Source: Eledone cirrhosa
Taxonomy: Eukaryota
NCBI GenBank assembly: GCA_964016885.1
Contig: OZ024751.1
Span: 25,730,001-25,794,000 of the forward strand
Reading direction: 5' to 3'
Length of the DNA: 64,000 nucleotides
Below the pieces are notes generated by a model. That model was not told the DNA's origin, ran no database searches, and saw only the letters and a program-made list of their open reading frames with translations. Positions 381 to 56,856 of this stretch are shown in pieces (position 1 is the stretch's first letter; every line of letters begins with the position of its first letter). Both the position numbers and the translations under genes were made by a program.

Positions 381-577
381 GGAACCAGTAAGACCCCGAC
401 AGCTGAGCTCAAGCCGTTTCGACGGCTAATTCTGGACTCATTCCAGAATTAGCCGTCGAAACGGCTTGAGCTCAGCTGTCGGGGTCTTACTGGTTCCTAT
501 TACCCACTCTACTACCCCAAGTATTGAGTACTTTGGTGCGTTATGGTCCACCTGGTTCCTTACCACTTTTCCTTCGT
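381..577 (+). mobile_element. Family A fold-back element in (TA)n with half-hammerhead
   Basis: Inverted arms 381-436/442-497 plus 80-bp tail; GAAACGGC-TTGAGCTCA-GCTG-TC at 458-480. Confidence 0.85.
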
Positions 578-684
578 TATATATATATATATATATATAT
601 ATATATATATATATATATATATATGTGTGTGTGTGTTTGTGTGTATCTATATACTTATATATCTATATGTATAATATATATGCA

Positions 685-823
685 TGTATATTTAGGGTAA
701 TTATCGACGGTGAATAGACTCGTTGGAGGAATATCGATCTTTATATGAATATATATATGTGTAGACAAGACCACTATTGCTTCAACCAATCTATTCACCA
801 TCGATAACGACCCTAAATATACA
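685..823. repeat. Degenerate inverted repeat (fold-back)
   Basis: TGTATATTTAGGGTAATTATCGACGGTGAATAGA pairs imperfectly with TCTATTCACCATCGATAACGACCCTAAATATACA. Confidence 0.65.
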
Positions 824-913
824 TATACTACACATACATACTTTCTTTCTCTCTCTCTCTCTCTCTCTATATATATATATATATATATATATATATATAT
901 ATTTATATATATA

Positions 914-1103
914 GGAACAAGTAAGACCCCGACGGCTGAGCTCAAGCCGTTTCAACGGCTAATTCTGTCCAGAATTAGCCGTCGAAACGGCTTGAGCTCA
1001 GCCGTCGGGGTCTTACTTGTTCCTATTACCCACTCTACTACCCTAAGTATTGAGTACTTTGGTGCGTTATGGTCGACCTGGTTCCTTGCCACATTTCCTT
1101 CGT
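914..1103 (+). mobile_element. Family A fold-back element
   Basis: Same arms and tail as 381-577, flanked by (TA)n. Confidence 0.85.
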
Positions 1104-1708
1104 TATATATATATATATATATATATATATATATATATATATATATATATATATATATATATATATATATATATATATATATATATGTATATATATATAT
1201 ATATATATATAGAGAGAGAGAGAGAGAGAGAGAGAGAGAGAGAGAGAAAGTGAGAGAGAGAGAGAAAGAGAGAGAGAGAGGGAGAGAGAGGGAGAGAGAG
1301 AGAGAGAGAACAAATGGAAGTAAATAATTCAATAGTGAGGTGGCAAAACTTTAACAAAATTCATCAGAGCAATCGATAAGAGTTCAATATGATCAGTGAC
1401 TTAACTATCAACAAATCATCCAATAAAGATATCAAAGTCATCGATATATCCCACAAATTAATTTTGGTCATCAACAAAAAATTAGTACAGATAATATTAA
1501 AAACAATTGATAATTGAATCAGTCAGTAAGTATATATGTATATATATATATATATATGCGTGTGTATATATATATGTATATATATATGTGTGTGTGTGTT
1601 TTTCGGTGTGTATGCATATATATATATATATATATATATATATATAGTTAGATATATATATATATATATATATATATATATATATATATATATATATATA
1701 TATATATA

Positions 1709-1918
1709 GGAACGAGTAGGACCCCGACGGCTGAACTCAAGCCGTTTCGACGGATAATTCTGGACACAAGAGTCCACTGCGGTCCAGAATTAGCTGTCGA
1801 AACGGCTTGAGCTCAGCCGTCGGGTTCCTACTCGTTCCTATTACCCACTCTACTACCCTAAGTATTGAGTACTTTGGTGCGTTATGTTCCACCTGGTTCC
1901 TTACCACATTTCCTTCGT
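1709..1918 (+). mobile_element. Family A fold-back element
   Basis: Same arms and tail; longer apex ACAAGAGTCCACTGCG; flanked by (TA)n. Confidence 0.85.
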
Positions 1919-2187
1919 TATATATATATATATATATATATATATATATATATATATATATATATATATATATATATATATATATATATATATATATATA
2001 CATATATACAGTATTTTCCGTTGTATTGTAATATAAATATCACACACAGTAGATTGACAGCTCACGTAGAGTTTGCTCGACGGTTCCAGTTGTAGTTCCA
2101 AAAGTAATCCGGAGAAAAATAGAAAGATTTGAATGGATACAAATCTTTATATATATACATATATATATAGAAGAAAGAGGAAAGGAA

Positions 2188-2650
2188 GTGTGTGTGTGTG
2201 TGTGTGTGTGTGTGTGTGCGTGTGTGTGTGTGTGTGTGTGTGTTTGTGTGTGTGTTTGTGTGTGTGTGTGTGTGTGTGTGTGCGTGTGTGTGTGTGTGTG
2301 TGTGTGTCTGTGTGTGTGTTTGTGTGTGTGTGTGTGTGTGTGTGTGCGTGTGTGTGTGTGTGTGTGTGTGCGTGTGTGTGTGTGTGTGTGTGTTTGTGTG
2401 TGTGTGTGTCTTTGTGTGTGTGTGTGTGTGTGTGTGCGTGTGTGTGTGTGTGTGTGCGTGTGTGTGTGTGTGTGTGTGTGTGTTTGTGTGTGTGTGTGTG
2501 TGCGTGTGTGTGTGTGTGTGCGTGTGCGTGTGTGTGTGTGTGTGTTTGTGTGTAAGTATGTGTGTGTGTGTGTGTGTGCGTGTGTGTGTGTGTGTTTGTG
2601 TGTGTGTGTGTGTGTGTGTTTGTGTGTGTGTGTGTGTGTGTGTGTGCGTG
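2188..2650. repeat. (TG)n microsatellite
   Basis: Interrupted TG run. Confidence 0.95.
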
Positions 2651-53896: not shown

Positions 53897-54490
53897 TGGT
53901 CATCAGTTTGTCACGGAAGAGTGAGTGGAAAGGAAAAGGGGGAAACATAAGAGAAGTAGGTTATACTAGGTTGGGGTGGGCTTATTTGTAAGCTGTTTAT
54001 TCTTAAAGAGGCATTTGCGCTATACAGAAATAATGAAATAATGAATTATATCCCTGGATATATATATATATATAATACATTATAAAGAAGAAACATTAGA
54101 CATAAATAAAAAATATAGATACCCAATATTCCTCGACTGCGCAGTTTCGTGGCTACTTTGCAAAAACATTACATCATAGAGATGCAGTATTTTTGTGAGG
54201 TTTGCCAACTTATCAAGAGAATACCTCATTTAAAGTTTCAAAACACGTCCGCAAGGCGTGAGAGAGAATCCTGGAAAGGCGGAGTGGGAACTTATCACGT
54301 GATACAGCGGTCAAGAAACAGAGTTAAGCATCTTACAACCAAGAGAAAAATACCACAAATGGCGGAGGGGGCATTAATATCTAGGCTACAGACGATATAT
54401 ATATATATATATATATATATATATATATATATATATATATATATATATATATATATATATATATATATATATATATATATATATATATAA

Positions 54491-54936
54491 TTTTGAGTAT
54501 GTGTTGGTCGTTTACCGACACTCCAGTATGCAGTTTAGGGCACTCAACGAAGTGCGCAGGTTGGTCTGTTTACTCCGGAGTAATGTAAAAACAAAAAGTG
54601 TAAGTCAATATGTTAAAATTAGCTTCGTTTATTTATATTCGCTGCTATATATATATTTCAGTGATAACCATTATTCAACAGCTATGACCTCATCGGGCAG
54701 TTAGAACTTGAACAGAAAAAAACAGGAAAACATAATGGTGGAATAGATTTTACCATGTTAATAGGTTGATATGTTCAGATCCAGAGTGTGGTGTTAGTCC
54801 TATTAGGAACTGAAAGCATCTGTTCAAGTTCTAACTGCCTGATGAGGTCATAGCTGTTGAATAATGGCTATTACTGAAATATATACAGTAGCGAATAGGA
54901 ATAATCGAAGCTAGATTTAACATGTTGACTTACACT
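54491..54936 (-). mobile_element. Family B fold-back element with two decayed hammerheads
   Basis: Tail ~54491-54595; arms ~54596-54716/54819-54936; cores CCGATGA (-) and CTGATGA (+, 54839). Confidence 0.8.
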
Positions 54937-56278
54937 TATATATATATATATATATTCGTACATATTTTATTTATTTGTGTTCCAGCCAAGAGGCTGAGGC
55001 CATGCTGGGGCACCGCCACCGATGCTACACTTTCTATAGTCAACCTTCCTTGGTTAGCCATTGGTGCAAAAGGGAGTTTGTTACTGCTGTTCTTGTCTAT
55101 GCTTCGCCTTGTGCCGTAGGTTCACTCGGCAGCTTGCATCAAGGAAACTATGTTTTCACTGGTCCTTCTTTTGCTGATATTATCTTCCATTTACAATTAG
55201 GTTTGAACTCAGAATGTACAAAGACTTAATAGATATCCGAATGTAATCTATCCAACGTTTTAACAATGCAGCCGGCCCTGTAATGCTACATCATTTATAT
55301 GTTTATTGACCACGGCTGGATGAATAAAAACTTTGACCTCGGCAAGATTTGAACTCAGAGTTCAGATAGCCGGAATAAACACCGATATGTTTCAACCGAC
55401 CATCAATTTGTGAGTAAATATTAAACGGTCAAGGTATCTATCCGTGTTTTATGTCGACGTATTGATATTAACATCAGAAACTATAACATTTAAAAGTAAT
55501 TTATGACAAAGAGTTATCTCCTCGTAATGGGAAAAGATGAAATATTTACAACTATAACTACAGATATATAAAACTCTTTTCAACAAGTGAATGTTTTAAA
55601 TATCTAAAGATAAAAACCTGATATGTGATGTCAAAGTTGAATTGTTCCTCTTCTGAAATATATCTGTTGCATATTCCTGCTCTCCTATATATTCTATTAA
55701 ATCATTTTTAGTTTGGTTTCTTCTGCAAACGATATAACGTCAGCATAAACTAAGAAATTTTACTGCAAAGATAATGCCCATAATCTTAAGTTTTACTCTG
55801 CTTTGCAAGAGAAATAGCCTCGTCTCGGGATATAAGAAGTTGTGCTGATAAGATAATGTATATAGATATATAGACAAAAGAAAGTAATTTTATATACATA
55901 ATAAATGAGATAAAGTATCTAAAGTCACTTATAGCTTTTGAGAAAGAAAAATGCTGTAACTCTTAAAGTATTGTGATATATTCATATTACAGATAAGTCT
56001 GAAATGGTTGAGTTAACCAGAGAAACTCTTCCATGTAATAAAGCAGATTTCGGGAGATACAAAATAAATCAACAACTTTAAGAGTGAAATCAAAATATGT
56101 CACGAAAATGATTGAAAACTGATCGCCATTGATAGGACTCACAAGAAGTGTCTTTCTGAATGTCTTTGGTCTTACAGGTAACTTGTTTTTCAGTTTTATA
56201 ATATTCATTCCATTCGAGTCGTTAGTTTATTGGTTTGCGAACAGATTTATTTCGTTAAAATGATTTACATCATTTCAC

Positions 56279-56478
56279 CTGGTGATGGTCCGCAGTAAAC
56301 TGGCAGAGTGATGGCTAAGGCCTCGGAGAGGGTGTGTGCACGTGAGTATATGTGTATATGTGTGTGAGTGCAACACAAGAAATCGTCTTCCTCACTGATT
56401 AACGAACGTGTGCGCTCTGCCCAGCTGGGTTCGAATTTTAATAATACGAATTTAATTGATCATTGATTGGGTGGGGGA
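56279..56478 (-). promoter_or_regulatory. Possible promoter and non-coding first exon
   Basis: Unique GC-richer island; on the minus strand CCAAT (~56466-56470), Inr-like TCAGT (~56394-56398) and donor CAG|GTGAAA at 56279/56278. Confidence 0.25.
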
Positions 56479-56612
56479 AACGACTGAAGCTATGTCTGTT
56501 CTATTAGACTTGCTTCTTCTCTTCATTATATATATATATATATATATATATATATATATATATTGCTGGCCTTGTGCCTAAAGTAGAAACAATTATATAT
56601 ATATATATATGC

Positions 56613-56745
56613 TTAAAAATAAGAATGTCTGCTGGGGGTCTCGGATATTTCTAAGCATTAAGACAAATATCCGAAACCCCCAGCAGACAACTGATGAGGA
56701 AAACTCCTCCCATCGTTCTTGCTTTCTTCTTATTCTTATTTTTAA
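56613..56745. repeat. Fold-back element in (TA)n
   Basis: TGTCTGCTGGGGGTCTCGGATATTT vs AAATATCCGAAACCCCCAGCAGACA; AAAAATAAGAAT/ATTCTTATTTTT outer pair. Confidence 0.65.
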
Positions 56746-56798
56746 TCATACCTTATCTAGCAGCTACACACCCAATCCTCTTCATATATATATATATA

Positions 56799-56856
56799 GG
56801 AACGAGTAGGACCCCGACGGCTGAGCTCAAGCCGTTTCGACGGCTAATTGTGGACT
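56799..56856 (-). mobile_element. Family A single arm
   Basis: GGAACGAGTAGGACCCCGACGGCTGAGCTCAAGCCGTTTCGACGGCTAATT after (TA)n. Confidence 0.8.

Follow-up and report, generated by a model that had tools for sequence, protein, structure and literature searches.

Why should one repeat retain, copy after copy, the 3′ half of a hammerhead ribozyme without the other half? The question is raised by a stretch of 64,000 nucleotides (nt) of Eledone cirrhosa DNA (assembly GCA_964016885.1, contig OZ024751.1, positions 25,730,001 to 25,794,000 of the forward strand), hereafter the window, in which this repeat, family A, had been predicted at ten loci. We conclude with little doubt that its short copies, or stubs, are truncation products, namely 5′-truncated head-to-head insertions of a Penelope-like retrotransposon. 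On balance, the 3′ half alone was probably kept because the template RNA begins in loop II of the hammerhead, some 18-22 nt upstream of GAAA.

Family A stubs and their parent element

All ten predicted loci are present in the window, which is rich in microsatellites (33.8% GC; genome size 3.0 Gb). Positions within family A are given relative to G12 of GAAA (0), the scissile bond being +22/+23. A typical copy runs (TA)n, inverted arm, short junction, direct arm, tail of about 80 nt, (TA)n. The loci are as follows.

381..578, + strand: stub with inverted arm (3′ terminus 1), junction, direct arm with the hammerhead 3′ half, and tail of ~80 nt (3′ terminus 2); GAAA at 458; flanks (TA)n
914..1104, + strand: stub, anatomy as at 381; GAAA at 984
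1709..1919, + strand: stub with a 16-nt insert in the junction; GAAA at 1799
13354..13556, + strand: stub with an 8-nt insert in the junction; GAAA at 13436
20212..20385, + strand: stub of an older sister family, differing in stem II and loop III; GAAA at 20291; long relatives found
28695..28885, + strand: older stub; G12 lost in the direct arm (AAAA), GAAA kept in the inverted arm (28734, minus)
34915..35075, - strand: stub with the tail at left; arms join at an internal palindrome spanning GAAA
41639..41717, - strand: tail alone, without ribozyme sequence
48500..48601, + strand: inverted arm of 19 nt, ending at the scissile bond, joined to the tail
56799..56856, - strand: single arm (GAAA at 56838), then an unrelated repeat

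Eight of these loci contain GAAA, a 5-bp stem III whose loop is mostly palindromic, a GUC/GUU triplet and GGGG. The pattern originally described for the eight loci with arms (GAAA-CGGC-loop-GC(C/T)G-T(C/T)-GGG or a near match) holds with some corrections: the direct arm at 28695 reads AAAA, 56799 has a single arm, and the copy at 34915 folds on its internal palindrome. Of the other two loci, 41638 is tail alone and 48500 has an inverted arm of only 19 nt. The window has 10 occurrences of a generic 3′-half motif, whereas 100 doublet shuffles gave 0.07 on average and 1 at most. It also has 39 CTGANGA sites, not one of which falls inside a family A copy; the hammerhead 5′ half is missing from all ten loci, and no stub in the window has both core boxes on one RNA. 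Arms in the window end 0-22 nt upstream of GAAA. The best 150 of 376 Rfam matches to the window were microsatellite or hairpin noise.

A 27-mer from the hammerhead 3′ half has 24,224 exact matches genome-wide. Longer family A copies extend 5′ into a common 3′ untranslated region (UTR) and then into an open reading frame (ORF), and locus L103 has the layout pLTR-ORF-pLTR (pLTR, pseudo-long terminal repeat). An array on C1 (L298-L300, 91.472-91.496 Mb) contains five pLTRs at 3,542-3,543 bp spacing and is closed by an inverted arm. Identity between the two adjacent units compared is 99.8%, and three complete ORFs of 717-719 amino acids (aa) lie within the stretches read; the layout would fit rolling-circle copying of a circular RNA. 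The arm variant of the stub at 381..578 is that of this young array subfamily. The tail of family A is the beginning of the 5′ UTR, and copies have two fixed 3′ termini, at +42 and about +122, both ending in TA.

ORFs of the array carry RLRWR, DKT, YRDD, CNCPDRSIC (CxCx5C), CNLC (CxxC) and CKH (CxH). With YRDD, belonging to the reverse transcriptase (RT), and IYQ..YIG, the 717-719-aa product combines an RT with a GIY-YIG-type endonuclease (EN) at the C terminus in a single ORF. Partial tandems forming pLTRs, an inverted 5′-truncated copy and a tail at a single end, as in EN-containing (EN+) Penelope-like elements (PLEs), are all present. An RWK-type motif, DKT, the CxCx5C linker, CxxC and CxH in the EN and the (TA)n target together suggest that the parent belongs to the Hydra clade. 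With regard to the CCHH motif, which the EN of the Hydra clade lacks, reading by eye shows one Cys between the GIY and YIG boxes. The ORF has 403 homologues, with 35-52% identity among the 120 matches listed, and a Pfam search with it gave no match. Neptune and Naiad were dropped as candidate clades on motifs and domain order, and identity with Hydra-1_Obim was ruled out, three motifs being missing from the supplement of Craig et al. A non-LTR retrozyme would consist of head-to-tail tandem units, each with a whole ribozyme and no ORF, a description that family A does not fit because its stubs are head-to-head with unique junctions and its tandems carry an ORF. Fragments of other Penelope-like ORFs were observed beside or within three family A loci (L067, L105 and L118).

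The missing half of the hammerhead

Genome-wide, 13 of 77 arms (17%, about 1 in 6; the sample is the first 77 consecutive exact matches on C1) are long and keep the hammerhead 5′ half. The original claims that every copy keeps only the 3′ half and that the inversion always falls within ~20 nt upstream of GAAA thus hold for the window but not for the genome, while its view of the copies as reverse-transcription products with half of a type I hammerhead was borne out. At -61 or -63 the long copies contain ACCCC, (U/C)UGANAA, G, a 2-nt bulge and CGGCUA; ACCCC pairs with GGGGU (stem I) and CGGCUA with UAGCCG (stem II). The proposal that extended copies would reveal GACCCC-CTGANGA is therefore correct as to the stem I strand, whereas the core reads UUGANAA, so that a literal search for CUGANGA fails though a hammerhead is present. 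CTGANGA within 8-38 nt of GAAA gave 22 matches, none of them a full-length family A parent, because this gap is below the real spacing of 54-56 nt. An Rfam search with the whole parent motif returned no match.

Two 5′-half patterns, with positions 3, 7 and 8 free, gave 1,960 and 3,350 exact matches (5,310), and the 200 rows listed were scored by eye. A occupied position 8 throughout (200/200), each of the four bases occurred at position 7, and at position 3 there was U in 154 rows and C in 46. In the main family U3-A8 was found in 63/100 and 91/100 of the rows listed for the two patterns and C3.A8 in 37/100 and 9/100; canonical CUGANGA was found in none of these 200 rows. C3-G8 was seen by eye in about 31 rows among 85 matches with G8 forced, many of them in older sister lineages. 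In the sister family to which the 20212 copy belongs, 78/100 listed rows show U3-A8, and stem II is compensated. U3-A8 has been published for Schistosoma PLEs (PMC4209133) and reported active in vitro (Perreault 2011). With this variant accepted as a Watson-Crick 3-8 pair, the long copies have such a pair together with GAAA and NUH.

Among 33 long copies the 3-8 pair was UA in 17, UG in 7, CG in 6 and other in 3, and one stem II pair was AU in 19, GC in 8 and GU in 3. Overall 87.5% of cells were paired, with 35 double changes against 18.5±3.3 in shuffles (0/500), and two of five covariation measures, the pair counts, were not above shuffles (169/500 and 491/500), in rows that are related to one another and of which some had been selected for G8. 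The core of the long copies is surrounded by three helices that show covariation, as in a type I hammerhead. In three copies of the main family the hammerhead fold and one that buries GAAA in a 6-bp hairpin are 0.2-0.8 kcal/mol apart; the former is predicted, leaving tertiary contacts aside, to be favoured in the youngest array (0.75) and some sister copies. Stem II is a short helix, whose predicted probability is 0.15-0.76 for four copies of the main family and 0.01 for a fifth lineage (L109, a copy without G12, was left out of the fold table). Unconstrained folding of the parent motif gave weak z-scores (-0.4 to -1.3). Long copies carry a whole U3-A8 type I hammerhead motif, a putative self-cleaving ribozyme.

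Two observations count against an essential ribozyme. The C3.A8 and apparently also U3.G8 subfamilies were amplified too; C3.A8 would be impaired, judging from the published 3-8 pair, and no literature on the activity of G8A or C3.A8 hammerheads was found. Moreover, sequence continues across the cut site in all 24,224 of the 3′ halves counted, which means that the RNA copied was uncleaved or had been religated.

Where the arms end and why

The ends of the 77 sampled arms are far from evenly spread: 9 lie at 0 to -5, 55 at -11 to -24 and none at -25 to -55, with 13 arms long. This wall is located in loop II, on the far side of the stem II 3′ strand (-8..-1). It is found again in every subfamily, each time in the bases proper to that subfamily, and is unmoved in the sister family despite a different loop II sequence and fold. 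Short-read contigs (of unknown kind, from one study and possibly the source sample, and uninformative on starts or expression) show the same drop, with loose ends at -21/-22. Many arms stop at U-21, adding T's and leaving A-22 uncopied; there are also short arms that extend over -22 and -23. Oligo(T) run-ons and template jumps begin at the wall, and in one insertion (L204:1047-1766) a 257-nt unit (-21..+235) occurs twice head to tail, followed by a third copy ending at terminus 2. The wall overlaps TCATT/YAGT motifs, and one A is invariant in 33/33 aligned loops. TCAGT is the arthropod initiator, the consensus being TCAKTY.

Complementary DNAs (cDNAs) begun further downstream also meet the wall. 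Among 50 of 64 copies whose tail continues into the UTR or ORF (starts at +165 to +955), 8 end at -5..-22 and 20 at +3..+106, whereas 22 get past, so the wall stops some far-downstream cDNAs, yet most long ones pass. The two arms of an insertion share their fate: of the loci with at least one long arm, 26/74 have two, against about 10% expected at a pass rate of 17-18% (by eye; P=0.002 even against an expectation of 20%). Past the wall, the lengths of the two arms are often far apart. A tail is present on exactly one arm in 76/77 short pairs (one locus entered twice) and in 22/23 long pairs. Junctions are distinct in 72/77 cases; their features are microhomology, small inserts of templated sequence, or run-ons of oligo(T).

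These data do not support the originally proposed stall of reverse transcription in a strong stem II followed by fold-back. Stem II is weak and bistable, the ends lie beyond it, arms pass or stop together, and a second family has its wall outside the ribozyme. The tail arm was longer than its partner in 26 cases, shorter in 28 and equal in 20, so that neither arm is systematically longer and simple fold-back finds no support; some insertions, furthermore, join arms of two families.

This second family, family B, has a type I hammerhead with canonical CUGAAGA and a palindromic stem III, and is itself present in the window at 40-330 (core 163, where GAGA replaces GAAA) and 32060-32370, where cores at 32123 (+) and 32358 (-) form a pair inverted head-to-tail around (TA)n. 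Family B stubs keep the whole canonical hammerhead, and their breakpoints cluster about 130 nt upstream of its core (~40/100 rows listed). Three head-to-head insertions (L003, L008 and L011) pair an arm of family A with one of family B, and therefore two arms can derive from different RNAs. In two others (L004 and L012) a family A arm runs from the wall, in sense, into loop/stem II of the hammerhead of a third family, so that a whole but chimeric motif results. All came from a search pattern favouring chimeras, from which no rate is derivable.

Taken together, the wall, the shared fate of the arms, the stopping of far-downstream cDNAs and the run-ons and jumps favour a template that starts in loop II, as do the initiator-like motifs at the wall, the family B cluster, the one-tail rule and the start sites within the pLTR known for Penelope and Chlamys-3. 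By analogy with an anole element, the endonuclease would nick both strands of (TA)n, and cDNA synthesis would be primed by one strand at terminus 1 and by the second strand at terminus 2, with uncleaved RNA as template. On a linear transcript from the pLTR promoter these priming sites would be only ~64 and ~145 nt from the 5′ end. Both cDNAs would then run off the RNA end, lose or gain a few bases, and become linked to each other by these ends. Two template classes may be envisaged: linear RNAs starting in loop II, giving stubs, and tandem or circular RNAs without an end there, giving long copies and arrays. Stubs would be by-products without ribozyme function.

Several points weigh against this scheme. 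The start site is deduced from DNA, and 22/30 read-through copies reaching -5 pass the wall, so that a second template class or strand transfer must be assumed. Ends are spread over -11..-24 rather than fixed at one base. Such initiator-like 5-mers occur commonly, and the invariant A might make a tertiary contact in the ribozyme. A block on a shared RNA would likewise stop both arms together, and, given the A/B chimeras, shared fate is no proof of one template. Finally, the clade assignment leans on motifs, the Pfam search being without a match.

The serious rival, which we consider possible though less likely, modifies the idea of a stall: the wall would be a roadblock on a longer RNA, where the folded ribozyme, through a loop II tertiary contact or a distal hairpin, or a bound protein halts leading and trailing RT. 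A small loop II hairpin is predicted with its 3′ foot at about -14, the invariant A fits a tertiary contact, correlated arms follow from the shared RNA, and the ribozyme of the anole element is assisted by protein (Frangieh et al. 2024, PMC11167929). Junctions also cluster on the palindrome over GAAA (~18/100 rows listed), albeit as a minor class of 1,298 matches. However, the helices are weak and bistable, most long cDNAs from the ORF pass the site, the family B wall lies outside its ribozyme, and that of the sister family is in place though loop II differs in sequence and fold. A further alternative, improbable in our view, keeps an RNA end at the wall but attributes it to processing, either a nuclease cut or a branch at A-22 that blocks RT, rather than to transcription start. 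Arms that stop at U-21 with added T's, leaving A-22 uncopied, would fit a branch, the context of A-22 resembles a branch-point consensus, and introns are known in PLE pLTRs. Yet several AG dinucleotides lie within the next 16 nt, a pyrimidine tract is absent, no spliced copy was found among the loci read, and there are short arms with -22 and -23.

It is very unlikely that the stubs are a self-copying non-autonomous element whose wall reflects a founder effect. The very high copy number would suit such an element, but most junctions are distinct and the wall recurs in each subfamily with its own bases. Least credible is the more speculative part of the original prediction, that half ribozymes are kept as trans substrates of the missing 5′ half. 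A lone sense arm and a natural 5′ half are predicted to cofold into a hammerhead shape (-28.1 kcal/mol), so this is structurally possible for such an arm, and the 5′ end of the messenger RNA (mRNA) itself could pair in the same way. Whole stubs, however, are predicted to be locked in 55-60-bp hairpins (-117 to -131 kcal/mol), which makes them poor trans substrates; truncation suffices to explain their content, and copies decay, that at 28695 having lost G12. Nor is there a clear excess of arms ending at the scissile bond (16/100 rows over three positions against 3-6 per neighbouring position, by eye).

If transcription does begin in loop II, the mRNA starts inside its own hammerhead, with the substrate half at its 5′ end, while the 3′ pLTR, 3.5 kb away, holds the sole enzyme half. 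Speculatively, the two ends could pair as a split ribozyme that loops the mRNA and gates strand transfer or circularisation, the alternative fold serving as off-switch. Were this true, the half-ribozyme arms, which number tens of thousands, would represent failed cDNAs of a strong-stop-like type and would document in the genome how the pLTR and inversion are built.

Elsewhere in the window, an inverted repeat at 56627-56700 is followed by CTGATGA and a 4-bp hairpin. A 37-bp tandem (21 copies, 97% matches) lies at 43481-44259 and a 15-bp tandem at about 60460-61450. Short frames at 15062-15466, 32873-33268, 36051-36536 and 46079-46489 resemble, by eye, fragments of non-LTR retrotransposon proteins.

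Comparison with known elements

Earlier work had already established the element class, the anatomy of inversion plus tail, and the U3-A8 core. Family A is a new Hydra-type family, and its half hammerheads are a real and well-explained feature with one testable mechanistic lead. We found no description of a truncation wall or start site within a PLE hammerhead in the literature searched, which took in part of the supplement of Craig et al. and excluded subscription journals, Repbase, Dfam and bioRxiv supplements. The family bears on how PLEs make inverted ends and tails and on what their hammerheads do, since it includes an intact young element and insertion products by the tens of thousands, with a sharp 5′ wall and a near-strict one-tail rule. 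Natural subfamilies have U-A, C.A, U.G and C-G at the 3-8 pair, and the wide amplification of those with the C3.A8 mismatch or U3.G8 wobble is a natural test of the need for cleavage. Two questions thereby become directly testable: the starting point of the template, and the importance of cleavage to mobility.

One of the closest known systems is the Hydra clade of PLEs with a C-terminal EN, such as Hydra-1_Obim (Craig et al. 2021, PMC8557442), which shares the RWK-type, DKT, CxCx5C, CxxC and CxH motifs, the (TA)n targets, a pLTR hammerhead, the inverted 5′-truncated copy and the single-end tail. The unit is 3.5 kb here against <3 kb typical of Hydra, and the tail ~80 nt against 30-40. The Hydra hammerheads given in supplement file S2 are all CUGANGA with loops II of 3-10 nt, whereas family A has UUGANAA and a 35-40-nt loop II region, where most copies break. 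Minimal type I hammerheads of metazoan PLEs, including Schistosoma Cercyon (Cervera and De la Pena 2014, PMC4209133), share U3-A8, the G10.1-C11.1 pair, a short helix I, a palindromic loop III, opposite-strand motif pairs and mostly truncated copies; family A differs in its 5-bp helix III, long loop II and near-isoenergetic GAAA-hiding fold, in that most copies are half motifs, and in that C3.A8 and U3.G8 subfamilies were amplified as well. PAc, an anole element of the Poseidon clade (PMC11167929), shares the two fixed initiation sites bounding the tail, priming on both target strands, an uncleaved RNA template and an AT-rich target. It belongs to another clade and its ORF starts within the ribozyme, and neither a 5′ wall nor a one-tail rule is described in the available portion of that paper. 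Animal non-LTR retrozymes (Li et al. 2026, 10.64898/2026.07.22.740005) are likewise short PLE-derived repeats with a type I hammerhead sequence. They are, however, head-to-tail tandems of whole ribozymes, whereas family A consists of head-to-head stubs with half a ribozyme and unique junctions.

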